The translations under genes and the position numbers were made by a program. Of a stretch of 64,000 nt of DNA, positions 22,114 through 64,000 are shown in pieces (position 1 is the first letter of the stretch; every line of letters starts with the position of its first letter). The DNA comes from Gammaproteobacteria bacterium. GTDB lineage: Bacteria; Pseudomonadota; Gammaproteobacteria; QZLD01. The notes under the pieces were generated by a model. That model was not told where the DNA came from. It saw nothing but the letters and a program-made list of their open reading frames with translations, and searched no databases. Where the stretch lies: positions 101,393 to 165,392 of the forward strand of contig JAWSVA010000014.1 of NCBI GenBank assembly GCA_033852155.1, given 5' to 3'.

Positions 22114-22118
22114 AGGCC

Positions 22119-26412: not shown

Positions 26413-26500
26413 TGGCGGACAGGGAGGGATTCGAACCCTCGGTACGTTACCGTACACACACTTTCCAGGCGTGCTCTTTCGGCCACTCAGACACCTGTCC
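26413..26500 (-). tRNA. tRNA-Ser (anticodon GGA), class II with long variable arm, CCA encoded
   Basis: Reverse complement folds as GGACAGG-TG-...-CACGC-CU[GGA]AA-GUGUG-long variable arm (UGUACGGUAACGUACC)-GAGGG-TTCGAAT-CCCTC-CCTGTCC-G-CCA. Its 3' end faces the hsd block. Confidence 0.9.
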
Positions 26501-42968: not shown

Positions 42969-43124
42969 TTAAAGCCAAGCACGCTATTTGTCTAATGCCA
43001 CAATTCTGCCACAATTCATAATCGCTTTTACATGATATCCACCCTAAACTGCCCTGTAATTCATCTATAATTATTTTGATGGGCTTATTTGATGAGCATG
43101 GAATGGACTTATAGGAAGAAAATC

Positions 43125-47930: not shown

Positions 47931-50308
47931 TATTAAATTATTTAAGATTCCTGAGCGTAGCTGAAGGATCAAGAAAAACCAAAAAGTTGGCAATAATATT
48001 TGTAATAGCCTCTTTAGTTTTATTCATAGCGTTCATTACAGCTGACTACATCGCCCCTCTGCCTGAATCACAGCATAAGTTCAGCACTGTGGTTCTAGCA
48101 GATGACAATACACCACTGAGGGCATTTCCTGATAAAAATGGGGTATGGCGCTACCCTATAACAGCTGCTGACGTATCTCCCAAATATATCCAAGCACTAA
48201 TGGGATATGAGGACAGATGGTTTTACTATCACCCGGGAGTAAATCCATTAGCTCTATGCCGTGCTTTTGGGCAGATGATTAGATATGGAAAACCCGTATC
48301 AGGCGGTTCAACCATAACCATGCAGGTGGCAAGGCTACTGGACCCACATAGTAAAACCCTGCAGGGCAAATTTAAACAGATGTTCCGTGCAGTGCAGCTG
48401 GAATGGCACATGAGTAAGGCTGAGATTCTGGATATATATCTTAATATTGCTCCATTTGGAGGCCCAATCGAAGGTGTGCAAGCTGCAAGCTTCACCTACT
48501 TGGGTAAACCTGCAAAGCAACTAACGTATGCAGAGGCGGCACTCTTAGCGGTATTACCACAATCCCCTAGCCGTTTCCGCCCAGATCGTCATCCACAACG
48601 TGCAAAAAAAGCCCGTGATAAAGTTCTTAAACGCTTAGAAAAATTTAACATCTGGCCAAAAATTGAGATTGAAGATGCATTTGCTGAAGATATTCCCATG
48701 CAGAATAATTCCCGCCCCAAAAAGGCAGCTTTATTGGCATACCGACTCTTAAGTAAACAAAATAATTATGCAGATAAAATTGAAACTACTATCGACTTTA
48801 ACCTGCAAACATCTCTGGAGGAACAGTTAAAAACGTATATATCACAACTACCAGCAAAGACATCTGCCGCAATTTTAGTTGTTGAGAATAAAACCATGCA
48901 AGCTCGTGCTTATATCGGGTCTGCCGATTACAGTGATGGTTCACGATTCGGCTATGTCGATATGATTAGAAGTATGCGTTCACCAGGTTCAACTTTAAAA
49001 CCATTCCTTTATGGTCTGGCAATGGATGAAGGGTTGATACACTCATCCAGCCTGTTGCAAGATGTCCCGCTTAGCTTTGATGGCTACAAACCACAAAACT
49101 TCCTCGGCGGCTATAATGGTGCCGTTACCGTAAGTTCAGCTTTGCAAAAATCACTTAACATCCCAGCAGTACAAGTTCTTAAACATTATGGTGAAAATAG
49201 ATTCATTGATAATCTAAGAAATTCCGGATTAAAACTAAAAATACCGGGCAATGGAAAACCCAATTTAGCGGTAATTCTCGGAGGTGTCGCTACCAACTTA
49301 GAAACGCTGGTTGGAACATATTCCTCATTAAATAATAATGGTTTAGCAGCAAAAGTTATTTTCCAAAAAAACCAACCAACAAAATCACGCAGAATTTTAA
49401 GTCCAGAATCAGCTTGGATAATAAAAAAGATATTAGAAGAGAATGAACGCCCAGGAATCAACGACTCAGTACTCTTCCGCACCAACTCAAGAAAAGTAGC
49501 CTGGAAAACCGGAACAAGCTATGGGCACCGCGACTCATGGGCTGTAGGGGTAACCAATCAATATACAATTGGCGTATGGGTTGGCAGACCAGATAGCACG
49601 CCGCAACCAGGGCAATATGGTGCAGTTACCGCCGCCCCACTCCTCTTTAATATTGTTGACGGACATAACCTTTCACCTTATTGGTCCGACAACAATTCAA
49701 CCCCAAAAGGAATCACCCAAACAACTACCTGCTGGCCACTCGGGGTAGAAAAAAATGGTACTCAAGATCCAAACTGTCATGTTGAACATCAAGCATGGGT
49801 TATCGATGGTATAACCCCAACAACATTACGTGAGAACAAAACTAAAATCACCGCCAATACAGTATCGATACTAATTGATAACAAGAACGGAAAACGGGTA
49901 AATCTCGCTTGCAGTAAAAACGCTACGACTCCAACCAAATTTGCTATCTGGCCAACACGAGTTTTACCTTGGCTTGCTCCCGAGGTTAGATCAAAAGCAA
50001 CACCACCAAAACCAGCCCCAAACTGCCTAGAGCTTCAACCACTGTTTGATAGTAAAATAAAAATCATTGGTATTAACGACAATACTATTATCAAACGTAT
50101 ACCAAATTCAAAAGATAACCCAACCATCTCACTCAGCGTAAGCGGCGCAGAATCAGATGTATACTGGCTAAAAGACCAACAACTAATTAGAAAATTATCA
50201 CCAAATCAAAACCTGCTTTATAAATTCAGCACCGAAGGTGAGCATAACTTTTTTGCGATTGATGAGGCGGGGAATATGGATAAAATAAGTGTGGTTTATA
50301 AGCTGTAG
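47927..50308 (+). CDS. pbpC: Penicillin-binding protein 1C (bifunctional transglycosylase/transpeptidase)
   Basis: GT51 motifs (EDRWFYYHPGVNP, RYGKPVSGGSTITMQ). Transpeptidase STLKP (SxxK) and KTGTS (KTG). ATGA overlap with the A2M gene. Confidence 0.9.
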   Translation: MILNYLRFLSVAEGSRKTKKLAIIFVIASLVLFIAFITADYIAPLPESQHKFSTVVLADDNTPLRAFPDKNGVWRYPITAADVSPKYIQALMGYEDRWFYYHPGVNPLALCRAFGQMIRYGKPVSGGSTITMQVARLLDPHSKTLQGKFKQMFRAVQLEWHMSKAEILDIYLNIAPFGGPIEGVQAASFTYLGKPAKQLTYAEAALLAVLPQSPSRFRPDRHPQRAKKARDKVLKRLEKFNIWPKIEIEDAFAEDIPMQNNSRPKKAALLAYRLLSKQNNYADKIETTIDFNLQTSLEEQLKTYISQLPAKTSAAILVVENKTMQARAYIGSADYSDGSRFGYVDMIRSMRSPGSTLKPFLYGLAMDEGLIHSSSLLQDVPLSFDGYKPQNFLGGYNGAVTVSSALQKSLNIPAVQVLKHYGENRFIDNLRNSGLKLKIPGNGKPNLAVILGGVATNLETLVGTYSSLNNNGLAAKVIFQKNQPTKSRRILSPESAWIIKKILEENERPGINDSVLFRTNSRKVAWKTGTSYGHRDSWAVGVTNQYTIGVWVGRPDSTPQPGQYGAVTAAPLLFNIVDGHNLSPYWSDNNSTPKGITQTTTCWPLGVEKNGTQDPNCHVEHQAWVIDGITPTTLRENKTKITANTVSILIDNKNGKRVNLACSKNATTPTKFAIWPTRVLPWLAPEVRSKATPPKPAPNCLELQPLFDSKIKIIGINDNTIIKRIPNSKDNPTISLSVSGAESDVYWLKDQQLIRKLSPNQNLLYKFSTEGEHNFFAIDEAGNMDKISVVYKL

Positions 50309-50368: not shown

Positions 50369-50859
50369 CTTAATCTGAGGCATTTTTGCCACTTTTTGCA
50401 ATTTTCAAAAAAGACAATCTATATATTTATCAAAAGATTAACATAATCAGTGAATTGTCCACTCGAGTGGACAATGTTTGCAAAAAGCACCTAAAAAAAC
50501 AAAAAACACTGCCGAAAAAGTTTGGGAATATTGGGATAGGAGAAAGAACTAATACTAACCTTGTAAGTTGGTGGTGAGCCCTTCGACTTAAGTTTATCTC
50601 GAGCCTTTCGGCTACGCTCAAGATAAACCAAGGCCGAGAGGTTCAGGATAAACCAAGGCGAACCCCAACATAACGTAAGCTAACTTAAAAGCAAACGCTG
50701 GGGCTCACTCTTCACCGTCACCCTACGCACCTCAAAAATAATATTTCAAAAGGCATAATATTACTCTGACGCAAATTAGTTTACAGCTACTTGAAGAAGC
50801 ACTAAGTGATTCTATACTGATATTAGCGAATAATACTTAACCACTAGCAGGGAGCTTTC

Positions 50860-52566
50860 ATGGCGAATAGTTATAATCAACTTAAATATGAAGTTGATGA
50901 AAAGCCAGATTTTAAAACCACACTTATTTTAGCCATACAGCACATCTCAATGGTTTATTCAGGAATTGTTTTGATGCCAATAATAATTGGCAGAGCTGTT
51001 GGTTTAGATGCAAGTACAATTAGCTATATGGTGTTCGTTACCGTCATTACCAGCGCAATTGCAACATACATTCAGATTTATAAGATCGGAAAAATCGGCT
51101 CTGGCATGGTCATGTTTATGGGAAGCAGCGGTGCTTACTGGGGGGCAACCTCAACCGCCTTGGCTGTTGGTGGAATACCGCTATTGATGACAATGAATAT
51201 TATTTCTGCCTTTTTGGAAATTATTGCCGCAAAATTCCTGGTACCTTTAAGAAAGATTTTTACGCCCGCAGTTGGCGGAACAGTGATAATGCTAATCCCA
51301 GTTTCTGTTCTTCCTGCAATTCTCAGTGCTTATTCAGGTGAGATAAAAGCTAGCGGACAAGTTTCAGAAAACATTATTATTGCTATTACCACCATGTCAG
51401 TATTGCTTGGGTGTTACATATTCGCCCCTAAAAAATATCAAACTCTTATGGTGCTAGCTGGTTTAATAGTGGGCAGTGTTTTAGCTACTGCCCTAGGAAT
51501 AATGGATTGGCAATCTGTTGCTGGAGCTTCAATTATTGGGCTTCCAGAAATGAAATGGCAACTCCCTGCTTTCGATTTTACCTGGCAACATTTTGCAATT
51601 TTACTAAGCTTTGTTATTGCTACTTTATCTAGCACCATTGAGACAATTGGCGATACCATGGTGTGCGAATCCATCTCTTATCGAAAATTTGTTAAACATG
51701 ATTTCAGCAAAATTAGTGGTGCACTTTATGCTGATGGGATTGGCAATATCCTTTCTGGATTGACAGGAGGAGTTGCTAATACAACCTATAGCACTAATAT
51801 TCCACTTATTAAAATCACGCAAGTATCTTCTCGAATTGTTGGTGGTGTTGGCGCCACCATACTCCTTATGCTGGCATTTTCCCCTGTCATCTCAGCAATA
51901 TTTTTAATTATTCCAAACGCTGTGTTAGTTCCAATTATTGCCTTTACATTTGCCTTGTTATTCGAAGCTGGTTTGTCTTTAGCAGGTAAAAACTCAGATA
52001 GACTTTCCCAATTAATAGTAGGGTTTTCATTTTTAATTGGGGTAGCTGGTGGTCAAAAACTATTATTAAATGAATATATGCCAGCAGTATTTCAGGAAAT
52101 TTTTGGCAACGCATTAACGACCGGTGGCCTCATAGCGATCATTTTATCCATAATTGCCAATATGGTTTTAAAGGGTAAAGTTGTGTTGCATGTTAAAACT
52201 CTAAAGACAAATATGGCTGAGTTTTTGGATGAACTAGAGAATAAGACTCAAGCAAGGTTCTCACTATCGGCTCGTGATTCATTCCGACTTCGCCTGTGTG
52301 CAGAAGAGCTTTTCGACTTTTTAACTGAACATAATATTGATGGTAATCTGACTGCCAAGTTTAGTGTTTATCGTCTTCCAAATGATATTTTGACTTGTGA
52401 TGTGATAACCGCATTTGATGTAAATGATGCAGATATTCTTACTGAAAATGCAGAAATTGGCGAACAATTGAATCTAGTTATTTTAAATAAATTGGCGAAT
52501 AAAGTTGAGCATGTACGCTCTGAATCAGCTGGATATATAACATTCGAATTGGCGCCTGAGGAATAA
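50860..52566 (+). CDS. NCS2-family nucleobase (xanthine/uracil-type) permease with ~130-aa C-terminal cytoplasmic extension resembling an RsbW-like GHKL domain
   Basis: N-terminal ~430 aa has the NCS2 profile (QHISMVYSGIVLMP ...). The C-terminal segment RLRLCAEELFDFLTEH...GNLTAKFSVYRLPNDILTCDVITAFDVNDADI...EIGEQLNLVILNKLA aligns by eye with the C-terminal GHKL domain of the 53271-55694 protein. Confidence 0.8.
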   Translation: MANSYNQLKYEVDEKPDFKTTLILAIQHISMVYSGIVLMPIIIGRAVGLDASTISYMVFVTVITSAIATYIQIYKIGKIGSGMVMFMGSSGAYWGATSTALAVGGIPLLMTMNIISAFLEIIAAKFLVPLRKIFTPAVGGTVIMLIPVSVLPAILSAYSGEIKASGQVSENIIIAITTMSVLLGCYIFAPKKYQTLMVLAGLIVGSVLATALGIMDWQSVAGASIIGLPEMKWQLPAFDFTWQHFAILLSFVIATLSSTIETIGDTMVCESISYRKFVKHDFSKISGALYADGIGNILSGLTGGVANTTYSTNIPLIKITQVSSRIVGGVGATILLMLAFSPVISAIFLIIPNAVLVPIIAFTFALLFEAGLSLAGKNSDRLSQLIVGFSFLIGVAGGQKLLLNEYMPAVFQEIFGNALTTGGLIAIILSIIANMVLKGKVVLHVKTLKTNMAEFLDELENKTQARFSLSARDSFRLRLCAEELFDFLTEHNIDGNLTAKFSVYRLPNDILTCDVITAFDVNDADILTENAEIGEQLNLVILNKLANKVEHVRSESAGYITFELAPEE

Positions 52567-52706
52567 TGTGTCCATTAATGGCATTATGGTAATTGCACTT
52601 ATTACTTGAAAGCGCGTTACCATAGTCTGTATTAACTGCATTTATTACTTTAATTCAGGTAATTTTACCCCAATTATTTCATACCTTTAGGCAGAATGAG
52701 TAAATT

Positions 52707-53099
52707 ATGGAAGAAACTGTTATACAACAAAAGCTCTGTGATGAGTTCCACATTTCTGAAAATTGTTATATTACCGAATTATCCAATACGGCTGACGATC
52801 CGGATGTTTCAATTGCCAAAGCGAGAGTTGAACCAGGAGTTACTACTCAATGGCATAGACTTGTAGGAACTACAGAACGATATTATATAATTAGCGGAAA
52901 AGGTATAGCGGAAATCGGAAAACTGCTACCTCAGGAAGTAAATGCCGGTGATATGCTACTTATCCCTCCAATGTGCCGCCAGCGTATTTCCAACATAGGC
53001 TCTGAAGATCTGATCTTTCTTGCAATCTGCACTCCCCGATTTTCCAATGATGCTTATGAAGATATTGAAGACGCTGTGAATTTATCTAGTACAAGTTAA
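52707..53099 (+). CDS. Cupin-domain protein
   Basis: 130 aa. Cupin_2 motifs G(x)5HxH-like (TTQWHRLVGTTERYYIISGKG) and GDMLLIPP. Confidence 0.7.
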   Translation: MEETVIQQKLCDEFHISENCYITELSNTADDPDVSIAKARVEPGVTTQWHRLVGTTERYYIISGKGIAEIGKLLPQEVNAGDMLLIPPMCRQRISNIGSEDLIFLAICTPRFSNDAYEDIEDAVNLSSTS

Positions 53100-53270
53100 A
53101 ACAAGCAAAAATCAATCTTGTAGCTAATATGAGTACCTCATACCCCCGACTAACTACATTGCTTGTATCGCTAAATTGCCCTCTAAAGATATTGTGCTAA
53201 GCTTTATGCACCAATGTGATTTTACTAATATAGATCAATCCTTTCCTGATAGACTACTTACAGGTTATTT

Positions 53271-55694
53271 ATGCGCTTTCACTCTCGTCTTATTCTACTC
53301 TTCTCAGTAACCATTTTAACTGCTGTTTTCCTCACCGCATCTTTGCTTGCATGGAGCTCCAGAAATTCAATGTATGAATCAACTCGCATTGATGGTGAGT
53401 TAGTTTCTTTACTTCTGGCAAGAAGTGCAGGATTCGCAAAACAGATACCTAAAGAGGTCGAAGATGCTCTCGGAGAACAAATGGTAGCCGCCGCAAACAT
53501 TGCAGCCGAATTTGTTGCCGCTGGTGAAAAAGCTGGCATGACCACCCCAGAGTTAACAACCCGACTTAAAGAGATCGTCAAACGCACTACCATTAATGAG
53601 ATTTGGGTTACCGATGAAAATGGGCATGCACTTCTTCATACCGAACCAGATGTTGATTTCACGTTCAGCCCAGACTCAACATTGCAACCTCAGGCATCCC
53701 AGTTTTGGCCACTGCTAACTAGAGAAAAAACAACCGTAATCCAGGATATGCGCAAAAGAGAAATTGATAATAAGTCATTCAAATACGTCGGCGTTACAGG
53801 GGTAGACAAACCAAGAATCGTTCAAATCGGTCTGGATGCATCAATGATAGAAAATCTTCGCCGCAGCATCGGTCTTGAATTTATGGTAGACAACCTGCTT
53901 GCCGGAGGCGATATTAATGCCATATGGGTTATCTCACCGGAGATGAAAACGATTGCCTACGGCTCAGTTTTTGGCAGCGACGTAAACCCTCAACCCACTC
54001 CTCGTGAAGCCAAAGCACTTCAAGAGGTTTTTGACCAACAAAAAACTCAAAGCATCCTAGAAAGCAATCAAATCACGATTATGACACCAGTGCCTAGTTC
54101 CACAGGAAAAACCATTGGCGTCTCACTAGTCCGTCTACCTCTTGACCACATGAACCAAACATTAAGAAACCAAATATATATTGCTATGATTATTGCTGCT
54201 GGATCGATATTAATTGGTATCTTAATCGCATTTGTAGCTGCCCGCAGAATTACAGATCCCGTTGAAACAATCACAGATGCAGCAAAGGCGATACAAGAAG
54301 GTAGCTTTACATCAGAGTGCCTGCTCAAGGTTTCCCAGAGATCCGATGAGATAGGCCAGTTAGCACAAGTAATTATCAAAATGGCGGAAGATGTATCAGC
54401 TCGCCAAGAATATCTCGATTGTTTGGTCACAGAACGTACGGCCGAACTCGAAATAAAAAATAAAGAAATAGAGCAAACCCACCAACAACTCCATAGTGAA
54501 TTAATGGTGGCACAATCGATGCAAATAGCCATCCTACCCACCGACTTTCCTGTGCATCCTAATTATGAAGTCTTTGGCAAAATGTTACCCGCCAAAGAGA
54601 TGGGAGGCGACTTCTACGATCTCTTCCAGATTGATGATGAGTGGTTGGGATTGGCGATTGCCGATGTCTCTGGTAAAGGGATGCCTGCTGCATTCTTTAT
54701 GGCAGTCTCCCGTACCGAGCTACAGTCAATTGCAGCCAGTGGTGGCGCCCCAGGTGAGGTACTCAGCCAAACCAATCAGAACTTGTGTTCTGAAAATCCA
54801 CTGGAACTATTTGTGACAGTTTTTTATGGGCTGGTAAATATCAAAACTGGACAGTTCATCTACTCCAATGGTGGTCATAACCCCCCTTATATATTGAGAG
54901 CTGATGGCAGCTGCGAAGCCTTACCATTAACTGGCGATATGGCCTTAGGTGTTATGCCCGACCTACTCTATCAAGACAACCAGGTCACCCTTCACACTGG
55001 GGATATGTTGGTGATGTTCACCGATGGTGTCACCGAATCATTTAATCCACAGGACGAAGAGTATGGCGAAGAGCGCCTTATTCAAACACTGAAAACAGCA
55101 AAAGGGGTTTCAGCAAAAGAACAGCTAGAAAATATCTATACCTCTGTTGACAATTTTGCCGACAATCGCGAACAATCAGATGACATAACCTGCCTTCTAT
55201 TCGATTTTCATCCAGAATCTGAATCTGAATCTGAATCTAAATCTGAATCTGGACGTATACCAACATCAGAAGTAATTGTTCTAACTAATGACCTTGCAGA
55301 ACTGGAAAAACTAGCCGGGGCAATTGAAAAATACTGTGACACACACGAGTTACCCCCAGCATGTTGTTTCCAGATAAATCTGGCTCTTGATGAGCTTATT
55401 ACCAACACAATAAGTTATAGTTTCGATGAAGGAGTGACTGGCAATATAACCATCCAGTTATCCTTAAATGCAGATATAGTAACAATATTATTAGTTGATG
55501 ATGGAAATCCATACAACCCTCTAGATACACCGCATCCTGACCTAGACGCTGAGATCGACGAGCGCGAAATTGGCGGCTTAGGCGTACATTTCGTGCGGGA
55601 ATATATGGATACCATAGACTACGAATATATGGATAATAAAAATCAACTAATATTGACCAAACAAACAACACCTCAGGATAACCAAGGAGAATAA
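53271..55694 (+). CDS. Membrane sensor fusion: periplasmic sensor domain - HAMP - PP2C (SpoIIE/RsbU-type) Ser phosphatase - (ESE)n linker - RsbW-like GHKL Ser kinase/anti-sigma domain
   Basis: Two TM helices flank a ~270-aa periplasmic region. HAMP after TM2. PP2C motifs GDFYDLF...AIADVSGKGMPAAFFMA...FTDGVTE. C-terminal LALDELITNTISYSF ... VDDGNPYNP ... GGLGVHFV (RsbW/SpoIIAB-like HATPase). Confidence 0.85.
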   Translation: MRFHSRLILLFSVTILTAVFLTASLLAWSSRNSMYESTRIDGELVSLLLARSAGFAKQIPKEVEDALGEQMVAAANIAAEFVAAGEKAGMTTPELTTRLKEIVKRTTINEIWVTDENGHALLHTEPDVDFTFSPDSTLQPQASQFWPLLTREKTTVIQDMRKREIDNKSFKYVGVTGVDKPRIVQIGLDASMIENLRRSIGLEFMVDNLLAGGDINAIWVISPEMKTIAYGSVFGSDVNPQPTPREAKALQEVFDQQKTQSILESNQITIMTPVPSSTGKTIGVSLVRLPLDHMNQTLRNQIYIAMIIAAGSILIGILIAFVAARRITDPVETITDAAKAIQEGSFTSECLLKVSQRSDEIGQLAQVIIKMAEDVSARQEYLDCLVTERTAELEIKNKEIEQTHQQLHSELMVAQSMQIAILPTDFPVHPNYEVFGKMLPAKEMGGDFYDLFQIDDEWLGLAIADVSGKGMPAAFFMAVSRTELQSIAASGGAPGEVLSQTNQNLCSENPLELFVTVFYGLVNIKTGQFIYSNGGHNPPYILRADGSCEALPLTGDMALGVMPDLLYQDNQVTLHTGDMLVMFTDGVTESFNPQDEEYGEERLIQTLKTAKGVSAKEQLENIYTSVDNFADNREQSDDITCLLFDFHPESESESESKSESGRIPTSEVIVLTNDLAELEKLAGAIEKYCDTHELPPACCFQINLALDELITNTISYSFDEGVTGNITIQLSLNADIVTILLVDDGNPYNPLDTPHPDLDAEIDEREIGGLGVHFVREYMDTIDYEYMDNKNQLILTKQTTPQDNQGE
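55215..55250. repeat. (GAATCT)n hexanucleotide microsatellite (5 perfect + 1 variant unit) encoding the ESESESESKSES linker
   Basis: gaatct gaatct gaatct gaatct aaatct gaatct, inside the 53271-55694 gene between the PP2C and GHKL domains. Confidence 0.85.
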
Positions 55695-55695
55695 T

Positions 55696-56034
55696 ATGAA
55701 TGTCAATTCTGAAACCGTAGGCGATATTAACATCGTCACCCCTAGTGGACGTCTAGATAGCATGACAGCCCCTAGTTTCGAATCTGAACTCCTGAGCCGT
55801 ACTGAAGAAAGCACAGACGGTGTGATCGTCGATTTTACTGACCTTGACTACGTATCCAGTGCAGGGCTAAGAATTATGCTCATGGCTGCTAAACGAATGA
55901 AAGCAGCATCTCGCAAGCTTATCATATGCGGACTAAGTGACTCTATACATGATGTGTTTAGAATCAGTGGTTTTCTGACTATTTTCACCATTGTCGGCAG
56001 CCGTGAAGAAGCGATCGAAAAGGCAAAAGAATAG
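55696..56034 (+). CDS. STAS-domain anti-sigma-factor antagonist (RsbV/SpoIIAA-like)
   Basis: 112 aa. Conserved phosphorylatable Ser region DLDYVSSAGLRIM. Start 2 nt after the stop of the upstream phosphatase/kinase gene. Confidence 0.85.
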   Translation: MNVNSETVGDINIVTPSGRLDSMTAPSFESELLSRTEESTDGVIVDFTDLDYVSSAGLRIMLMAAKRMKAASRKLIICGLSDSIHDVFRISGFLTIFTIVGSREEAIEKAKE

Positions 56035-56039
56035 AGGAA

Positions 56040-56906
56040 GTGACCAGCAAAATCCTGCCTAATAAAAACTATACAATCAGAATCGCGACGCTTACAGAAA
56101 TTGAAATTGCCATTGAATGGGCTGCCAAAGAGGGTTGGAATCCTGGCTTAAACGATATCGATTGTTACTATACAGCTGATGCAAACGGCTTCTTTATTGG
56201 GCTCCTCGACGATGAGCCTATTGCCACAATATCTGCAATTAAATATGGTAATACGTTTGGTTTCATTGGCTTCTATATTGTTAAGCCAGAATATCGCAAT
56301 AAGGGTTACGGCATACAAATTTGGAATGCTGCTTTAAAAAATTTACAGGGCCGAAATATTGGCCTTGATGGCGTAATTGCCCAACAAGATAATTACCAAA
56401 AATCCGGTTTCAACATGGCTTATAGCAATATACGCTATAAAGGAATCAGCGGTGGTAAACCACCTTATGACACAGAAATAATAGAACTATCCACCCTACC
56501 CTTTAAAACCATTGAGCTATACGAACGTCCATTCTTTCCTGAAGATCGGTCCCTATTTATCAAATCTTGGATAAATCAACCTGATTGCACTGCTCTGGGT
56601 ATAATGCGAAATGGAAAACTCCAAGGCTACGGTGTGATACGCGCGTGTCGTTCCGGATACAAGATAGGACCTCTTTTTGCGGAATGCCCAAAACAGGCCG
56701 AGTCTCTTTTTCTGGCGCTAAAATCCAGAGTTAAAGCAGGCGAACCAATTTATCTTGACGTACCAGAATCAAATCAAGCAGCAATATCATTAGCGAAGCG
56801 TAATAACATGCAGATAGTATTCGAGACGGCCAGAATGTATACGGGTGAAGAACCAGCTATACCACTGCATCGTGTCTTTGGAGTTACTTCTTTTGAAGTT
56901 GGATGA
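56040..56906 (+). CDS. GNAT-family N-acetyltransferase (tandem GNAT-like halves), GTG start
   Basis: 288 aa. Acetyl-CoA binding-type motif region (IVKPEYRNKGYGIQIWN). The 3' ~350 bp is duplicated downstream at 60172-60554. Confidence 0.7.
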   Translation: MTSKILPNKNYTIRIATLTEIEIAIEWAAKEGWNPGLNDIDCYYTADANGFFIGLLDDEPIATISAIKYGNTFGFIGFYIVKPEYRNKGYGIQIWNAALKNLQGRNIGLDGVIAQQDNYQKSGFNMAYSNIRYKGISGGKPPYDTEIIELSTLPFKTIELYERPFFPEDRSLFIKSWINQPDCTALGIMRNGKLQGYGVIRACRSGYKIGPLFAECPKQAESLFLALKSRVKAGEPIYLDVPESNQAAISLAKRNNMQIVFETARMYTGEEPAIPLHRVFGVTSFEVG

Positions 56907-56936
56907 ATAAATTAGCCAATGCATTTGAGATAGTTG
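56554..56936. repeat. Left copy of a 383-bp direct repeat (about 97% identical to 60172-60554)
   Basis: Aligned by eye: the same sequence from GTCCCTATTTATCAAATCTTGG through GCATTTGAGAT, with ~10 substitutions. Covers the GNAT 3' end plus 30 bp downstream. Confidence 0.85.
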
Positions 56937-56945
56937 ATTGCCATA

Positions 56946-58334
56946 CTAAGTCTCTTCAAGGTTTGATTTAACTCGAGGTGAGAGTTCAAATTGTGGGTGT
57001 TGTTTTATAGATTTTTCCGCCTTCAAAGACTGTAAAAACAGCCGAATACTTTCCTCAAGATAATCTTCGTGCTTTTCAAAGCAGCACCTTTGATCATAAT
57101 CCAAGCCTTTAAAATCTTTCAGATAACATCCTCCAAGACAAGACGGCAAGAACTTACAGTTCAAACATTTATATTCATCAAATGGAGACACAGAAAGCCA
57201 TTTATTACTTATCTGATTATTAATTATTTCTTGATCTAAATTTCCAACAACATGCTCGGGCTTACCCACCGTTTCCCAACATTTATATAATTTACCACCA
57301 GCATCAATGACGTAACTATTTTTACGCAATGCGCAACATGCTATTTTTTGAGGTTGAACTGGTTTATGCATTTTAAAGCCCAGTTCAATTGCATACTCCC
57401 AATATTCACTAAGCAATAAAGAAAATTCGGCCGGATTGTAGCATGATTTACATTGAGATCCTTTTTGGTCATCTGCAAAACTCTTATGCACCGGGCCAAA
57501 ACACAAACGTATTTTCCTTTGAAGATCTTCATCTGCAAGAAATTTAAGTAAAGGTTTTATATCAGATGAATTTGATGTATCTACTTTAATACCAAGACTA
57601 ATATCGATATCAGAAACAGCATGCAGATTTTTAATAATAGTGCTAAAAGAATCACCACCATCAATAGACTTTCTTCGCTCATTGTGAACTGTTTGTGTTC
57701 CATCTATTGTTACAGCAATAGTTTCTACCTTATATTTTTTTAATAATTTTGAACATGATGTCGTAAGTAAATACCCATTGCTTACAACAACTGCTGAATA
57801 AGTTATTCCTTTCGATTCTGCAAAATCAATCAGCTGTTCCGAAATGGCTGCAATCTGCTCCATTGCCAAAAGAGGCTCTCCACCAAACCAAACAATATTT
57901 ATATGTTTGCAATTTCCAGCTTTAATTTTGATAAAATCAACCAATTTGGCGATTGTTTCCACGCCCATATAGCTAGTTGATTTATCCTGAAAACAATAAG
58001 TGCAATTGAAATTACAATCCATTGTCGGTGCAATAGTAAAATCTACATATTGATCTGTATATCTATGGTATTCATGCTCAGCGTTAAGCAAACTTACTTC
58101 ATCAACATGCTTAGGAATAATCATTCCTGCGGAATATAAAGCATCATAGAGTCCTTCTGGAATATCTATAATATCGCTACTTTTTTTAGATTTATTATTA
58201 TTTAGCCAATTATAGTGTTCATCGCTTAATTGCACTAATGACCCAGTTAGGGTGCTAAAAGCATACGAGGTTGCTCCATCTTCTATCGGAAATATAAACT
58301 TTGATACCTTCATCCGTTCACTAACGACATACAA
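56946..58334 (-). CDS. Radical SAM/SPASM-domain peptide-modifying enzyme (RiPP maturase-like)
   Basis: CNFNCTYC (CxxxCxxC) about 105 aa from the N-terminus. C-terminal Cys-rich SPASM region (CKSCYNP ... CCALRKN ... YKCW ... CLNCKFLPSCLGGC ... CCF). 462 aa. The start overlaps the end of the upstream peptide ORF by 25 nt. Confidence 0.85.
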   Translation of the reverse strand: MYVVSERMKVSKFIFPIEDGATSYAFSTLTGSLVQLSDEHYNWLNNNKSKKSSDIIDIPEGLYDALYSAGMIIPKHVDEVSLLNAEHEYHRYTDQYVDFTIAPTMDCNFNCTYCFQDKSTSYMGVETIAKLVDFIKIKAGNCKHINIVWFGGEPLLAMEQIAAISEQLIDFAESKGITYSAVVVSNGYLLTTSCSKLLKKYKVETIAVTIDGTQTVHNERRKSIDGGDSFSTIIKNLHAVSDIDISLGIKVDTSNSSDIKPLLKFLADEDLQRKIRLCFGPVHKSFADDQKGSQCKSCYNPAEFSLLLSEYWEYAIELGFKMHKPVQPQKIACCALRKNSYVIDAGGKLYKCWETVGKPEHVVGNLDQEIINNQISNKWLSVSPFDEYKCLNCKFLPSCLGGCYLKDFKGLDYDQRCCFEKHEDYLEESIRLFLQSLKAEKSIKQHPQFELSPRVKSNLEET

Positions 58335-58528
58335 GGTTTTCCACCTGATTCATAATACGGACCACAAAGGCATGATAACTGCTCTTCAATTATCTTTTTC
58401 ATTATTTCAAAACGCTCATCACCAGCATTTTCAATATTTTTTAATTGCTCAGCTGTTAATTCAAAAATCAATCGTGTTTTATCCCTACTAGCATCAAGTA
58501 TTACCTTTGTTTCCTTATCATCACTCAT
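58310..58528 (-). CDS. Candidate RiPP precursor peptide (72 aa; acidic/helical leader plus Cys-rich C-terminal core SCLCGPYYESGGKPCMSLVNG)
   Basis: Strong ribosome-binding site (AGGAGAATTGT-ATG). Overlaps the maturase start (translational coupling). Leader is rich in K/E/D with an FELTAEQL motif. Core has 3 Cys, a GG and YY. Confidence 0.5.
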   Translation of the reverse strand: MSDDKETKVILDASRDKTRLIFELTAEQLKNIENAGDERFEIMKKIIEEQLSCLCGPYYESGGKPCMSLVNG

Positions 58529-58996
58529 ACAATTCTCCTTTGAATATATTAAATTAATATTAAACTCTCACATCAACTTCAATAGTTATTTGTAAAGTAA
58601 CTATCAATCATTTGACCTATGTACTTTACTTATACAATAACAACACTGTCAACTTATCTGAGCCTTGCGAATTCGTAATTAATACATTTACAATAAATCA
58701 TAGTATTTACTATAACCCGCAGGATTTTACTACTTTTAGAAGTCTTTGGTAGGGTGTGTTTTGATACCAGTTGCCGCCCCATCACCAAATTAAGAAGATC
58801 AACCCTCTTGTATATAAAGAGTCCGTTGACCTTTTTTATTTCTCAATATGATATTTTTTTAAAGGATGTCACTCAAACATATCAAACTGCACAGGATGAG
58901 ATGCAGCAAAATATTTTGATGTTTGTTCTTTTACTTTGTTTTCTGTCTTCTCTTTAAGTTTCTTTGCTTTATAAACAGCTGTTGCCTGTTCTTGGA

Positions 58997-60106
58997 TTAG
59001 CTCTTGTGTGGTACTTCATTCTTTTGAACATGAACATATAGATCCCTGCTAAGCCCTATTCCCTTAAACCAGCTCTGCTTAGCTTTAACCGCATATTCTT
59101 TAAGCTTTTCTGTTGCACCTGCAAGATGGTAATAGCGTGAACCAAAATATTTAACCGACTTAATCCAGTTTTTTTCTTGTACTCCAAGCTGTTCAAGAAT
59201 TGGTCTTATCTCAGGGGGGATATACCCACGTTTATCGTCTCGTATTGCTCTGCCTGTCCAATCTGCTAGTTCAAAGTAATCAAGTGGTGAGAAGCTTATT
59301 CCCTTATCATTTAAGTTATCGCTATTATCACAGGTTATCGACCCTGAAAATGGCAAAAGATCTTGTGGCTGAGCCATCTTCTTAACTGATTTTTTATTAT
59401 GTCTGCACTCTGTTGTAAGAGTTGGAACATCATTGGTTTTACGCTGTTTTCTTTTGTTCTCTTTCTGTGCAAAAACCTTGATGCGTTCTTCTATTGAAGT
59501 GAATTCTGAGCTTTGAATGGAATCACTTATCTTGGCTCTAATTGGATTTAAATCCACATAGATCATGCATGATAACAACGCTGTTTCATCTAATAGAGCT
59601 TGGCTTTTAAACCGTCCTTCCCAGAACCTGCCTTTACAGTTATCTTCTTTATTCGCCTGTCTTGCGATGGATTCATTCATGCAGCGCATTAACCAGGATA
59701 TATTGGTTAATCTATCACGCCATTCTGCAATTATCTCATCAACCTTTTCTAACTCAGCCTTACCAAGTTCATCACCAGTCATATAGCGATTAATCAAAAC
59801 ATTGCCTGCAAACAGCTGCACCCAGCGCTCGATAACTTCTTTGTTCGACCAGCTATCAGCCTTCTCTTTATCTACATGAAAAACAACATGATAGTGATTA
59901 CTCATTACCGCATAAGCACAGATATCTATCGCATAGATTGATGATAGCTGCTTAAGCTTATCTACAACCCATTTCTTACGGTGGTCAAAATTCTTTCCTG
60001 TTGAATAATCTTCCCCGCACAAGAAAGCACGGCGCACACAGCGAACCACACAATGGTAGTAGGGAGTATCTTCTAGGCTTACTTGATCTTTTCTGGCTTT
60101 TGTCAT
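58997..60106 (-). CDS. HUH-type Y1 transposase, IS200/RAYT-like (COG1943) long form (369 aa)
   Basis: YHCVVRCVRRAF (cf. YHVVWCPKYR), HUH motif SNHYHVVFHV, GRFWEGRF (cf. IWQPRFWEH of RAYT), catalytic-Tyr region MIYVDLNPIRA (cf. DYIYINPVKHG). Has an extra ~170-aa C-terminal region. Confidence 0.55.
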   Translation of the reverse strand: MTKARKDQVSLEDTPYYHCVVRCVRRAFLCGEDYSTGKNFDHRKKWVVDKLKQLSSIYAIDICAYAVMSNHYHVVFHVDKEKADSWSNKEVIERWVQLFAGNVLINRYMTGDELGKAELEKVDEIIAEWRDRLTNISWLMRCMNESIARQANKEDNCKGRFWEGRFKSQALLDETALLSCMIYVDLNPIRAKISDSIQSSEFTSIEERIKVFAQKENKRKQRKTNDVPTLTTECRHNKKSVKKMAQPQDLLPFSGSITCDNSDNLNDKGISFSPLDYFELADWTGRAIRDDKRGYIPPEIRPILEQLGVQEKNWIKSVKYFGSRYYHLAGATEKLKEYAVKAKQSWFKGIGLSRDLYVHVQKNEVPHKS

Positions 60107-60171
60107 GATTTGGTTATTCTACCCTGCTGATGCATAAACGTAAATCAAATTTTGGGTGTCCTTTATATTCA

Positions 60172-60554
60172 GTCCCTATTTATCAAATCTTGGATAAATC
60201 AACCTGATTGCACTGCTCTGGGTATAATGCGAAATGGAAAACTCCAAGGCTACGGTGTGATACGCGCGTGTCGTTCCGGATACAAGATAGGACCTCTTTT
60301 TGCGGAATGCCCAAAACAGGCCGAGTCTCTTTTTCTGGCGCTAAAATCCAGGGTTAAAGCAGGTGAACCAATTTATCTTGATGTACCAGAACCAAATCAA
60401 GCAGCAATATCATTAGCGAAGCTTAATAACATGCAGGTAGTATTCGAGACTGCCAGAATGTATACGGGTGAAGAACCAGCTATACCACTGCATCATGTCT
60501 TTGGAGTTACCTCTTTTGAAGTTGGATGAATAAATTGGCCAATGCATTTGAGAT
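60172..60554 (+). pseudogene. Right copy of the 383-bp repeat: orphan 3' fragment of the GNAT gene (ORF 60152-60529, 125 aa, with no N-terminal half)
   Basis: Encoded protein LFIKSWINQPDCTALGIMRNGKLQGYGVIRACRSGYKIGPLF...GVTSFEVG is about 96% identical to the C-terminus of the 56040-56906 product. Confidence 0.8.
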
Positions 60555-60613
60555 TACCAATAATTCATTATTTTAAGTCCTATATTTCATATACATGAAG
60601 TGTTTAGAATCAG

Positions 60614-62347
60614 TTATTTGGCAATGATGCGTCCTTCAATACTGCGTATTACAGGTGAATTGGTAGTGAATTCTTCGACCAACAGATCGATCCCAAGAAT
60701 ACCCGTATCACGACAATACGCGCCACTCGCACAAAGTTCCTGGAGCATCGTGTAACCGTCTCCACCACCAGCCATAAAACCATTGATAGCTATCCGGTAG
60801 GTCGTACTGGGATCGACAGGCTGATGATTGATAGTCAGTTTGGTCACCCGCCCCGCCGTCCTTAGTGCACCGACACAAGGCAATTGGGTGCAATAGGTCA
60901 AAGTCATGCCAGCTATTTGAGGAAAAGCGCCATCTCCTGCCTGAGACACCCCATAATCCAGCGCAGCAATCAGGGTATCACCATCAATTTCCATAGCTAC
61001 TAGCGTATTGCCAAATGGCAAAACTGCTAAAGCATCCTCAAACGTAATATCACCCTGGTTAAGATCAGCACGAATGCCGCCGCCATTTATAATTGCTGCA
61101 TCCACCTGATCTGAGTTAGCTGCCGATTCGAGGAAAACATCAGCAATCAGATTACCCTGTGGCATCTCTTGAGTACGCACGCCTGGGGCGCGCTGAGCAT
61201 CAAAGAACATACCGGCCTGACCTATAATTGTATTGGCGAAAATTTCTACGGGTTGACGATAGGCGGCTACCTTGGCCTTAATTACAGCGTTTTCCGCAGC
61301 AACCTGCTGCTGACACTCCACGGCGCCATTCGCAAATTCACAACCGCGCACAAAGACAGGCTGGCTTTGCCAGTTCTGAATCACGCCGAATTTATCAAAG
61401 CTGACATCGATTTGTCCCAGCCACCGCCCCGACTCGTTAGCGCTAACAATAAGCACCGGATTACCATCCTGCGCAGTCACCACGGTTGGATAGGGACCTT
61501 TGCTTAGTGCGCCCTGCCCGGGAGCGACTGCGTCGATAGTGGTCGGATCGCCCAAAAGAGCATGGTCGTGCCCCGAAATGATGAGATCAACCCCCCTCAG
61601 TTGTAGCGCTTTCTGCACATCGACCGTATAGCCGTAATGGGAGAGTAGAATGATTTTGTTGACGCCCTGTTCAGTCAGGCGATTAGCCTCCGCCTGGACA
61701 CTAGCGACGTAATCAAGAAAGCTTAGATTAGAACCAGGCTTAGAGACGGTAGGAACATCTTCAGTAACGATACCAAGAATGCCGAATTGCTCGCCACCGC
61801 GTTCCAGGATAACGCTGGTTGGGAGCAGGTCTGATAGCGCCGACTCGCGAGAAGTGTCGACATTGGTGGCGATCATAGGTGTCCGTAATGGTTCAGTTTC
61901 GTACACAGCGCTGGAGATGGCAACAGGTTCGCCACGTAAAGCCCGCCCCAGTTCTGCCGGTTCCATATCAAATTCATGGTTGCCCAGAGTGGTCGCATCG
62001 TAACCAAGGGCATTGAGCGCCATAACTTCGGCTGATCCTTTCCAGGCATTATAAAAAATTGTTCCTTGAAAGTTGTCACCGGAGTCTAGCAGGAGGGTGT
62101 GTGGTTTGATTGCGCGTATTTCATCAATAATTGTCTTGCGGCGAGCAATACCTCCCTGTTGTGGCCCAGGGTTGTTGGCAGACAGTTCGCTATCGCGGGG
62201 AAAAGGCTCCAGACGGCTATGGGTATCATTAGTATGGAGGATGGAGATAGTTATGGGCTGATGGTTCCAGCTGTCGCTATTACCACCACAAGCTGTCAGC
62301 AGCGATAATGAAAGGATCAGGAAAAGCAGATCTACGTGCATATTCAA
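60614..62347 (-). CDS. Lipoprotein bifunctional 5'-nucleotidase / metallophosphoesterase (UshA-like)
   Basis: Lipobox LLTAC|GG. Calcineurin-like phosphoesterase motifs (DTHSRLE, GDNFQG, GNHEFD, GHDH). C-terminal 5'-nucleotidase domain. Markedly GC-richer than the rest of the window. Confidence 0.85.
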   Translation of the reverse strand: MNMHVDLLFLILSLSLLTACGGNSDSWNHQPITISILHTNDTHSRLEPFPRDSELSANNPGPQQGGIARRKTIIDEIRAIKPHTLLLDSGDNFQGTIFYNAWKGSAEVMALNALGYDATTLGNHEFDMEPAELGRALRGEPVAISSAVYETEPLRTPMIATNVDTSRESALSDLLPTSVILERGGEQFGILGIVTEDVPTVSKPGSNLSFLDYVASVQAEANRLTEQGVNKIILLSHYGYTVDVQKALQLRGVDLIISGHDHALLGDPTTIDAVAPGQGALSKGPYPTVVTAQDGNPVLIVSANESGRWLGQIDVSFDKFGVIQNWQSQPVFVRGCEFANGAVECQQQVAAENAVIKAKVAAYRQPVEIFANTIIGQAGMFFDAQRAPGVRTQEMPQGNLIADVFLESAANSDQVDAAIINGGGIRADLNQGDITFEDALAVLPFGNTLVAMEIDGDTLIAALDYGVSQAGDGAFPQIAGMTLTYCTQLPCVGALRTAGRVTKLTINHQPVDPSTTYRIAINGFMAGGGDGYTMLQELCASGAYCRDTGILGIDLLVEEFTTNSPVIRSIEGRIIAK

Positions 62348-62675
62348 AACAACCTCATTTTACAAACAATCTCTTTTCGAAAAAAACTGTGTAAATTTAA
62401 CTCCTCTGATATTGGCATCTTATTTATTGGTTTTAGAACTAGCCGAATGCTATATAAGAATTATTTTTAATTTTAGTACATCTGAGTTTTAAAAAGCAGA
62501 AATAATCCACACATATAGGATGTTAATCGTATAAGGGCAAAGTAACTAGAAAATACTCACTATTCTCTGTAGCAGACGTAAGTAGAGTGCCACGAGTAAA
62601 AGACAGCGAACAAAATTGATTTCCTGTATATATAACCTATCCTTAATAGAGTTAAATCTGTTGGAATCTTAAAAA

Positions 62676-64000
62676 ATGGTAAATATTATCAAGCAGTTAT
62701 GGCTAATCTGCACTCTCATTGCGTTAGCTTCGCTTGCCCTGTTGTTATCCGATCTAGAACAACGTCCACATTATTCTCAAAGTGAACTAAAGACCTATCC
62801 CGCCATTGCGATCATGCAGATTACTTCCACTAACCTACTTGATAGTCATGTCAAAGGGGTTGTCGACCGTTTGCAGGAAGCAGGTTTTCTGGCACCGGAT
62901 AAGAAAAACCTGCATATTTTTAATCCACAGAGTGACATTTCCACGGCCAATGCCATTGCCAGTGAGCTTGCCAATGGTCCCTACGAAATTATAATCACCT
63001 CCAGCACCATTGCACTCCAGGTTTTTGCTAATGCCAACCGCACCAGCCAGAAAAAACATGTATTTGGAGCTGTAACCAATCCCTACACAACTGGGGTTGG
63101 AATCACTGGACCAGAGCCTACACAGCACCCCCCTTATCTGGCGGGGGTAGGCACCTTTCAGCCAGTCAAGGCCGCCGTTAGACTGGCGCATGAAATGAAT
63201 CCAGAATTACAACGATTGGGCGTGGTATGGAATTCTTCCGAACAATCTTCCGAAGCCTGTCTGATTGAGGCAAGAGCCATCACTGCCGAGCTGAATATCA
63301 ACCTGATTGAGGCCATCGCCACCAACACGTCGGAAGTTTACGAAGCCACACAATCCCTGATTGCCAAAAAAGTAGATGCCATTTGGATTGGAGGAGACGT
63401 GGTCGCGACTGCCTCCATAGATCTAATCATCAAACTGGCCACGCAGGCCGGAATTCCTGTCTTCACGAATGACCCTACCGATGCAGACAAAGGGGCAATC
63501 TTTGGTTTGGGTGCGGATTATGCAACCGTAGGCAAGCATACGGCGAATATCGCCATAGCCATCTTAAATGGAGCCTCCCCCGGCTCTTTCAGAATAGACA
63601 ATGACGTTCCTGAGCTTTTGAAAATCAATAACAATGCAATCAAAAAATTCCATTCAAAATGGAAAGTCACGGCTGGGGCTAAGGCCACTTTGACCAAGCA
63701 AAACGACCTATTCCTGCAAAACAACCGCCCAATCGCCCCGCCTGGAAAAAGTTGGCATATAGGGCTTTCCTATATTGTTCCCGCCCCAATTTTTGACTAC
63801 GCGATCCAAGGGTTCAAAGATGGATTGGCGGACCTGGGATTCATAGAAGGCAAAAATATCGAGATCACTATTCAACACGCCAACGGGGACCTTTCATTTT
63901 TACCTCAGGCAACAACGAACCTGGTTCAGCTAAAACCGGATCTATTGGTGGCTATGTCCACGCCAAGTCTGGGAAGTGCTATAGCGCATTCCAATGGAAT
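62676..64000 (+). CDS. ABC transporter substrate-binding protein, tandem-domain type (COG2984/PF04392-like), 3'-truncated by the window edge
   Basis: Self-translated ORF from the ATG at 62676 (MVNIIKQLWLICTLIALASLALL... signal/anchor). Two homologous halves (...AIAIMQITS...GVVWNSSEQSS... and ...HIGLSYIVPAPIFD...) typical of this SBP family. Not in the ORF track because it runs off the window. Confidence 0.6.
   Translation, partial: MVNIIKQLWLICTLIALASLALLLSDLEQRPHYSQSELKTYPAIAIMQITSTNLLDSHVKGVVDRLQEAGFLAPDKKNLHIFNPQSDISTANAIASELANGPYEIIITSSTIALQVFANANRTSQKKHVFGAVTNPYTTGVGITGPEPTQHPPYLAGVGTFQPVKAAVRLAHEMNPELQRLGVVWNSSEQSSEACLIEARAITAELNINLIEAIATNTSEVYEATQSLIAKKVDAIWIGGDVVATASIDLIIKLATQAGIPVFTNDPTDADKGAIFGLGADYATVGKHTANIAIAILNGASPGSFRIDNDVPELLKINNNAIKKFHSKWKVTAGAKATLTKQNDLFLQNNRPIAPPGKSWHIGLSYIVPAPIFDYAIQGFKDGLADLGFIEGKNIEITIQHANGDLSFLPQATTNLVQLKPDLLVAMSTPSLGSAIAHSNG

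Follow-up and report, generated by a model that had tools for sequence, protein, structure and literature searches.

A gammaproteobacterial peptide and radical SAM/SPASM maturase gene pair, probably a RiPP module, in a repeat-bracketed insert beside a RAYT-like HUH/Y1 gene

A short gene whose end overlaps the start of a radical S-adenosylmethionine (SAM) enzyme gene raises the question of whether its product is the substrate of that enzyme and, where such a pair lies in an insert between direct repeats, of how the pair came to be there. The locus considered here lies in a 64-kb stretch of the gammaproteobacterial contig JAWSVA010000014.1, called the window below, in which the three genes of the insert, all on the minus strand, encode a 72-aa peptide, a radical SAM/SPASM maturase and an HUH/Y1 protein. 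With moderate confidence, we favour a composite explanation in which the peptide and the maturase form a module for a peptide that is ribosomally synthesised and then modified post-translationally (RiPP), the maturase installs cysteine thioethers, and the insert arrived by integration of a circle. The pair itself consists of the following features.

58310-58528, minus strand: putative precursor peptide gene, 72 aa (open reading frame (ORF) list, sequence reading and allele comparison)
58540-58535, minus strand: ribosome-binding site AAGGAG, 6 nt ahead of the ATG of the peptide gene (sequence reading; conserved in the second allele, L002)
56946-58313, minus strand: radical SAM/SPASM peptide-maturase gene, 455 aa from the ATG at 58313 (profile, motif and fold)

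The mechanically called ORF of the maturase has 462 codons and opens with a TTG; in both the database protein and the family profiles, the ATG at 58313 is the start. The 462 aa and the 25-nt overlap with the peptide gene given in an earlier note on this DNA are therefore corrected to 455 aa and a 4-nt overlap, ATGA, formed by the peptide stop and the maturase start; because of this overlap the two genes are probably translationally coupled. The CNFNCTYC motif and the full SPASM domain reported in that note were both borne out by reading and by profiles. The motif supplies the cluster ligands C100, C104 and C107, the SPASM pattern reads C326-x13-G-x4-C345, C383-x2-C386-x5-C392-x3-C396, C410, and the CxxxCxxC and seven SPASM cysteines are invariant in an alignment of 61 homologues. 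Pfam Radical_SAM (PF04055) scored 47.9 bits against a threshold of 29.5 and NCBIfam SPASM (TIGR04085) 49.3 bits against a cut-off of 27; the Pfam SPASM match was weak (12.5 bits). A search with hidden Markov models of radical SAM-SPASM subfamilies, which the earlier note had proposed, left the maturase below every subfamily cut-off and in no defined subfamily. Its best matches were as follows.

TIGR04463: 263 bits, cut-off 525; best whole-protein match, aligned end to end
Clo7bot (CtpM, TIGR04334): 237 bits, cut-off 600; end-to-end alignment
CefB (NF038107): 230 bits, cut-off 600; end-to-end alignment
Geopeptide family: 184 bits, cut-off 400; end-to-end alignment
PapB (NF047865): 126 bits, cut-off 340; end-to-end alignment

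All five of these families pair with Cys-bearing peptides. Several other identities were rejected: anaerobic sulfatase-maturating enzyme (anSME; TIGR03942, 73.7 bits against 349; PRK13758, 49 against 441), SCIFF maturase (TIGR03974, 86 against 425), and PqqE, MftC and QhpD, all far under their cut-offs. Among 5.8 billion clustered proteins the sole close match of the maturase was itself, and the next relatives, mostly from anaerobes, were 29-35% identical.

Alignments with anSME begin at query residue 97, so that some 95 N-terminal residues are extra. In the AlphaFold2 model of the maturase (predicted local distance difference test score, pLDDT, 90.3), a beta3-alpha3 domain precedes the radical SAM core; it spans residues ~1-88, with strands at 7-12, 15-20 and 26-29 and helices at 31-40, 55-61 and 72-85, mostly modelled at high confidence. 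The Foldseek search of the PDB returned CteB as the top match, over the full length (E = 9e-21), then TigE, anSME and SuiB, with ChlB also a neighbour, and the PDB sequence search likewise placed CteB first (2e-18). An N-terminal region of about 100 aa, at the place where RiPP recognition elements usually sit, had been pointed out in the earlier note; as predicted, it looks like a peptide-recognition domain. Because of its motifs, profile scores, N-terminal domain and structural and sequence matches to CteB, the protein is best placed among the radical SAM/SPASM peptide maturases with a putative recognition domain, nearest to ranthipeptide-type families and outside the curated ones.

The peptide gene, as the earlier note had seen, opens behind a strong ribosome-binding site. 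Its product carries KVILDASRD near the N-terminus and ends in SCLCGPYYESGGKPCMSLVNG. Residues 23-36 (ELTAEQLKNIENAG) look like the last part of a leader of the double-Gly/NHLP type, and the leader/core boundary would then fall after G36. Leaders of that kind end in ELxxxxLxxV/I-x-GG/AG and usually stand beside a C39-peptidase ABC exporter. In a search of NCBIfam and Pfam at E <= 10, the peptide gave a weak leader match only (RiPP leader model NF033456, E 0.035-0.15, 12-14 bits against 24; CCRG-2 leader, E = 0.15). That the core is unlike known signatures agrees with the lack of any matching precursor family; the description of the peptide as Cys-rich was overstated, with 3 Cys in 72 residues. 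A word-indexed search and exhaustive HMMER screening of 1.84 billion representatives brought up a single relative, P0121, which is 96% identical; two long repeat proteins that also matched were judged spurious.

P0121 is encoded on a 1.5-kb contig from another run (L002), whose DNA is 94% identical to the window. It differs from the window peptide by three conservative changes, all N-terminal; the C-terminal 45 residues are identical, and the core segment GPYYESGG is conserved between the alleles. The two maturase genes differ by 44 synonymous and 23 non-synonymous codon changes, which points to purifying selection. The longest difference-free tract, 158 nt (58448-58290) where ~74 nt would be expected for the longest gap between the two alleles, covers peptide codons 28-72 and the maturase start; it has no synonymous change either, which hints at constraint on the RNA or at a recent recombination tract.

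Cys-bearing small ORFs also accompany five of the six distant maturase homologues read (29-35% identity), none having been identified in the sixth (L091). Several of these small ORFs have short leaders (YLVEPMD, WLIEPSD or WIEKPSQ); the NHLP-type precursor beside the homologous maturase of L089 ends in ELSDDDLENVAGG before a short Cys core, to be compared with ELTAEQLKNIENAG in the window. CteB (PDB 5WGG/5WHY) and PapB share with the window maturase the domain order of a recognition domain (putative in the window protein), the CxxxCxxC radical SAM core and the seven-Cys SPASM domain, and also a Cys-bearing precursor directly upstream, although identity to CteB is only ~19%, and the window precursor, with 3 Cys, has neither CxxxD/N repeats nor a SCIFF signature. 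The TIGR04463, Clo7bot and CefB systems are alike in their small Cys-bearing peptide partners and in the end-to-end alignment of the maturase, which however stays below half of their curated cut-offs. The Clo7bot locus, on a Paraclostridium plasmid, holds several Cys-rich peptide genes whose products begin with MKFIKKPARKFEEG, a leader loosely resembling KVILDASRDKTRLIFE of the window peptide. Clo7bot loci, on a Firmicute plasmid, encode an ABC transporter along with several peptides that are very rich in Cys, whereas the window locus, in a gammaproteobacterium, encodes one 72-aa peptide whose leader is long and helical, and has no transporter. SCIFF systems (ScfA/ScfB) are conserved chromosomal equipment of Clostridia. 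Like the window pair, they comprise one precursor (ScfA, with six Cys in its model) and one radical SAM/SPASM maturase and lack a protease or exporter of their own; the window pair differs in being a strain-specific insert, in having a peptide that matches nothing in NCBIfam, and in the score of its maturase (86 bits where 425 is the SCIFF cut-off).

The closest named maturase homologue lies in a larger cluster on an Aminicenantes-type contig (L084, 1705-6385; L085, 1336-6016). That cluster also contains a second radical SAM gene, Cys-rich peptides of 48-50 aa, and four tandem peptides of 62-64 aa with lanthipeptide-type leaders ending in GG, beside an ABC2 membrane protein.

We consider it highly probable that the peptide and the maturase form a RiPP module. 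The earlier note had read the pair as the minimal peptide plus radical SAM/SPASM architecture, and the ATGA overlap, the recognition-like fold and the retention of the peptide beside the only close homologue agree with that reading. It had also named two findings that would speak against a RiPP, a peptide not kept beside homologues of the enzyme and an enzyme that profiles as anSME; the peptide is kept in the second allele and the enzyme is not an anSME. In the proposed pathway, the 72-aa peptide would be translated from its own ribosome-binding site and the maturase by coupling through ATGA. The N-terminal domain of the maturase would bind the N-terminal leader of the peptide, and the three-cluster enzyme would cross-link the C-terminal part by means of a 5'-deoxyadenosyl radical. 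Most likely, carbons of other residues would be bonded to the thiols of C53, C55 and C66, giving sactionine- or ranthionine-type thioethers. A leader protease and exporter would be encoded elsewhere, or the product would stay in the cell, as with SCIFF systems. As to whether the enzyme does install cysteine thioethers, the family resemblance leaves us evenly divided.

Several results count against this pathway or its chemistry. The peptide has three cysteines only, and it matched nothing in NCBIfam at E <= 0.01, curated precursor families included. The maturase reaches the cut-off of no curated whole-protein family, and the Pfam PqqD-type recognition domain was not detected in its N-terminal 88 residues. 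A scan of 22 window ORFs (the insert neighbours and 17 of the larger ORFs) brought up neither an exporter nor a leader protease, in line with the earlier note, which had seen none adjoining the pair. Our literature search returned no papers on TIGR04463, Clo7bot, CefB or the geopeptide family. TigE, a close structural match, makes cyclopropylglycine and not thioethers (PMC9062424). The thioether RiPP of the earlier note keeps the resemblance to Cys-peptide maturases as its ground, and is a suggestion.

The best-surviving alternative is a RiPP module with another chemistry: carbon-carbon or carbon-oxygen cross-links on the Tyr-Tyr-Glu segment, cyclopropylglycine formation or epimerisation, the cysteines being incidental or engaged in disulfides. 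Structural neighbours such as TigE (cyclopropylglycine), SuiB (a Lys-Trp carbon-carbon bond) and ChlB speak for it, as do the absence of any curated cut-off reached and a core with only three cysteines that nevertheless conserves GPYYESGG. Full-length similarity can moreover mislead about chemistry, as the case of StsB illustrates, which is most similar over its full length to MftC and is in fact a sactisynthase (PMC10288494). We nonetheless think this alternative rather unlikely, since each of the top five family matches is a maturase of Cys-bearing peptides, a Cys-bearing small ORF stands beside all the distant homologues read except L091, and the seven SPASM cysteines are all present, as in CteB. 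Thioether formation, although unproven, remains the likeliest chemistry.

How the pair came to its present place can be read from the insert and its surroundings, which were compared with a contig of a related genome (L152) reached via a cluster mate of the GNAT protein.

56040-56906, plus strand: intact host GNAT acetyltransferase gene, 288 aa (Pfam Acetyltransf_18 and Acetyltransf_1; full length against orthologues; syntenic in L152)
56546-56932: direct repeat, left copy, 387 nt, 375/387 identical to 60169-60555
56933-60168, minus strand: insert of 3,236 bp with three genes, repeat-bracketed and absent from the syntenic relative L152
56986-57009, minus strand: degenerate second end motif TATAAAACAACACCCACAATTTGA, within the last ~21 maturase codons, 21/24 identical to the copy at 60145-60168 and in the same orientation
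58529-58996, minus strand: AT-rich spacer (31% GC) from the HUH/Y1 gene to the peptide gene; L002 homology ends at 58557
58997-60106, minus strand: intact RAYT-like HUH/Y1 gene, 369 aa (motifs, profiles and fold; TnpAY1 subclass 2.3)
60107-60168, minus strand: conserved 5' unit of the HUH/Y1 gene, with the motif ATATAAAGGACACCCAAAATTTGA (60168-60145) and the promoter-like TTTACG-17-TAGAAT (60144-60116)
60169-60555: direct repeat, right copy, a GNAT fragment that lacks its 5' part (codons 170-288 plus 26 nt) and is a pseudogene remnant, with a 375/387 match to the left copy

The left repeat copy comprises the last 361 nt of the GNAT gene and 26 nt downstream. The observation that the repeats duplicate the 3' end of a host GNAT gene at ~97% identity is upheld, with the repeat length adjusted from 383 bp to 387 nt and the insert from 56937-60171 to 56933-60168. 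GC content is 35.5% in the insert and 37.7% in the window. The Rfam scan of 56400-60700 gave no match, the terminator scan predicted none, and the spacer contains the minus strand's best promoter-like site, TTGACA-18-TAAAGT at 58652-58623.

L152 is syntenic with window positions 50804-56922 (84-89% identical) and 62611-63996 (93.7%), and has 91 nt where the window has the 5.7 kb from 56923 to 62610; the insert, the GNAT fragment and a 5'-nucleotidase gene are therefore all lineage-specific. The two repeat copies match L152 at only 354 and 351 of 387 positions, and 10 nt past the end of the L152 homology are common to both. The duplication thus appears to have occurred within the lineage, after the nucleotidase-type junction existed.

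The 5'-nucleotidase/NadN-like gene (Metallophos and 5_nucleotid_C domains; not SoxB) lies at 60614-62347 on the minus strand, with flanks extending over 60556-62610, and has 50.7% GC against 37.7% in the window. Its absence from L152 suggests that it was acquired horizontally on a separate, earlier occasion, at the same intergenic hot spot between the GNAT and substrate-binding-protein genes.

Homology of L002 to the window extends only to 29 nt upstream of the peptide start codon, where a different gene ends, so that the pair also occurs without the spacer and transposase that lie immediately upstream in the window. The end of that upstream ORF (AGYTQSSDSGFKAKVLVAKLRWAADTIFYR) has no family match and is not a transposase C-terminus. 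With the insert absent from L152 and the L002 allele in a different context, the pair is mobile, on comparison of these assemblies, in the sense of variable presence and variable placement. To that extent the earlier description as mobile cargo holds; the partnership with the HUH/Y1 gene, seen once, is the part that lacks support, and the further statement that the pair travels with the transposase is not borne out by the different upstream gene in L002 or by the closest HUH/Y1 homologues, which have no radical SAM gene.

Around the peptide-maturase pair there is a 24-nt imperfect inverted repeat (56966-56989 and 58560-58583; 79% complementary; core TTRAACTCTCAC), of which one arm lies 3 nt outside the end of the L002 homology and the other abuts the second end motif; as there are ten such pairs in 10 kb, the bracketing may be due to chance.

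The HUH/Y1 protein carries H71-Y-H73 and Y183-x3-NP (Y183VDLNP), and falls under the thresholds of both Pfam Y1_Tnp (PF01797, 19.9 bits against 23) and NCBIfam RAYT (partial, 43.7 against 80). Its homologues number more than 8,000, and some of them go by the name RayT or DUF1568; the best PDB fold match of its AlphaFold2 model (pLDDT 86) is E. coli TnpAREP (4ER8, E = 6e-4). Its HuH-Y spacing of 110-112 residues, the Y-x3-NP motif, a long two-part C-terminal extension and the gammaproteobacterial distribution are like those of TnpAY1 subclass 2.3, whose medians are a spacing of 110 residues and a length of 325 aa (Quentin et al. 2018, PMC6006769). On these features the protein is best assigned as RAYT-like, of subclass 2.3. 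Members of this subclass have no reported REP-like flanks and no demonstrated autonomous mobility (PMC6006769), so that the Y1 HUH transposase of the earlier note retains its motifs and loses the implied activity. An IS200/IS605 TnpA (subclass 1.1) was rejected on the length of 369 aa against ~130-150, the sub-threshold PF01797 score, the lack of end hairpins and the single copy in the window.

Homologues at six loci in other genomic contexts (L087, L088, L092-L095) were compared with the window. They are 74-86% identical and not near-identical copies, and DNA homology with their loci starts at 60164-60169, which is the insert/repeat junction, and ends within the 3' end of the gene. The closest three (86%, 74% and 74%) lie in unrelated surroundings (RHS with toxin-antitoxin genes, PIN with type II secretion genes, and a lipoprotein gene), with no radical SAM gene or peptide beside any of them. 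RiPP genes adjoin the window gene and are seen in none of the four distinct homologue contexts examined for this (L087, L088, L092 and L093).

The 5' unit was compared with 30 other HUH/Y1 loci, 27 from a metagenome scan and L087, L088 and L092. Most of the 30 loci have the sequence [AG]GACACCCA at a distance of 52-136 nt upstream of the gene, often as 2-5 tandem units, and seven also have inverted copies 200-370 nt downstream. In a family profile built from other HUH/Y1 loci, with the window excluded, the motif at 60168-60145 scored E = 0.0005. The homologues are flanked by a conserved unit of ~25 nt, TATATA-[AG]GACACCCA-TAWATTGA, often tandem upstream and at some loci inverted downstream or in dispersed clusters (L102, 3872-3930; L104, 3741-3932; L110, 1136-1182 and 2534-2675; L123/L124, many; L126, 2559-3929). 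Such REP- or iteron-like arrays were not reported for TnpAY1 subclass 2.3 (PMC6006769).

For the insertion itself, we tentatively lean, at somewhat less than even confidence, to integration of a circle. By a single crossover, a circle of 3.6 kb with 387 nt of GNAT homology would have entered the intact GNAT gene; the layout of a full GNAT gene, the insert and a GNAT 3' fragment is the outcome of such an event. One junction coincides with the conserved 5' edge of the HUH/Y1 unit. This account has its own difficulties. The repeat differences are unevenly placed, with none in 56549-56728 and 11 in the 204 nt from 56729 to 56932, which a plain single crossover does not predict, so that later gene conversion must be added. 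A same-species empty site was absent from the genome contigs searched (best GNAT match 76%), no circular form was seen, and the association of the pair with the HUH/Y1 gene was seen in this window only.

A more specific version holds that the three genes are one transposon, the HUH/Y1 enzyme recognising the 24-nt motif at both ends (60168-60145 and 57009-56986) and excising a circle with the pair as cargo. Exact copies of the 12-mer ACACCCAHAATT are present at just two places in the 64 kb, one at each insert end and each on the minus strand: 60159 in the 5' unit and 57000 in the maturase tail; the ends match at 21 of 24 positions, the family motif is often reiterated beside homologous genes, and one junction lies at the motif edge. 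The site at 57000, however, although the second-best window match to the family profile, has E = 2.2, and comparable alignment scores are obtained with other tiles of the window; it lies 53 nt inside the junction and not at it; and no hairpin of the kind found in IS200/IS605 or repetitive extragenic palindromic (REP) elements was better than shuffles at either insert end. Given these scores and the absence of hairpins, a two-ended motif bracket around the insert is suggestive, not established. Together with closest HUH/Y1 homologues that lack cargo, an allele (L002) that lacks the transposase spacer and a subclass without demonstrated mobility, this makes the one-transposon account improbable in our judgement. 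Decidedly improbable, too, is the fullest version, namely that a HUH/Y1 gene of subclass 2.3, otherwise regarded as domesticated or without an assigned function, here belongs to an active cargo-carrying element, with the 24-nt [AG]GACACCCA ends as recognition sites, the pair as passenger on a 3.6-kb circle, and an undescribed RiPP scaffold, possibly with an undescribed cross-link type. The HUH/Y1 link, like the peptide chemistry, is unproven, and we lean, still tentatively, to a circle that integrates by GNAT homology.

A very unlikely explanation is that the repeat architecture arose in assembly, as a chimera of two co-occurring strains with the insert at two positions 387 nt apart, and not by duplication within one genome. 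The sample appears to be of metagenome type and to contain divergent alleles (the 94% allele, L002), the repeat copies differ by 3%, and L001, an independent assembly from another run, breaks within the repeat, precisely at the last 31-mer unique to the left copy, which shows that the L001 sample contains both repeat variants. A chimera would nonetheless require two independent insertions of the same 3.2-kb unit less than 400 nt apart in a region through which a 179,736-bp contig was assembled; L001 spans and confirms the junction 56932|56933, and the repeat copies are closer to each other (375/387) than to L152 (354 and 351). It is less parsimonious than duplication within the genome.

That the small ORF is not a substrate at all, and the maturase a non-RiPP SPASM enzyme (a sulfatase or cofactor maturase) with its target elsewhere, would fit the lack of an exporter or protease beside the pair and a peptide without a family, but is hardly credible given an anSME model score of 74 bits against 349, the RiPP features of an N-terminal recognition-like domain and a full-length CteB match, and a small ORF with a ribosome-binding site, an ATGA overlap, conservation in the second allele and a core that is the most conserved tract of the locus.

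Elsewhere in the window, a complete type I restriction-modification system (HsdR, HsdS and HsdM, with a 336-aa ORF between HsdR and HsdS; 18976-25827) lies ~600 nt from the only tRNA gene, tRNA-Ser GGA (26413-26500), and may represent an island that integrated at this tRNA gene. At 43089-50308, the gene for a bacterial alpha-2-macroglobulin (1613 aa) stands immediately before one for a PBP1C-type penicillin-binding protein. Ordinary chromosomal genes nearby include the radical SAM gene YgiQ (7900-9831) and a partner-switching pair of HAMP-SpoIIE-kinase and STAS genes (53271-56034).

The pair is a sequence-orphan example of a well-populated kind of radical SAM peptide cluster: some 3,400 predicted sacti- and ranthipeptide clusters have been listed (PMC10288494). 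With thousands of comparable clusters already predicted, the current view of RiPP biosynthesis is unchanged. The maturase clade is rare in this gammaproteobacterial lineage, which is probably sulfur-bacterium-like, and the locus gives a dated, strain-level gain of a RiPP pair, absent in a syntenic relative and represented by two alleles with different upstream contexts. The 24-nt end motif offers a concrete DNA substrate for probing the activity of subclass 2.3 HUH/Y1 proteins. If the maturase modifies the peptide, the two genes would form a compact route to a new cross-linked scaffold, small enough to express directly.

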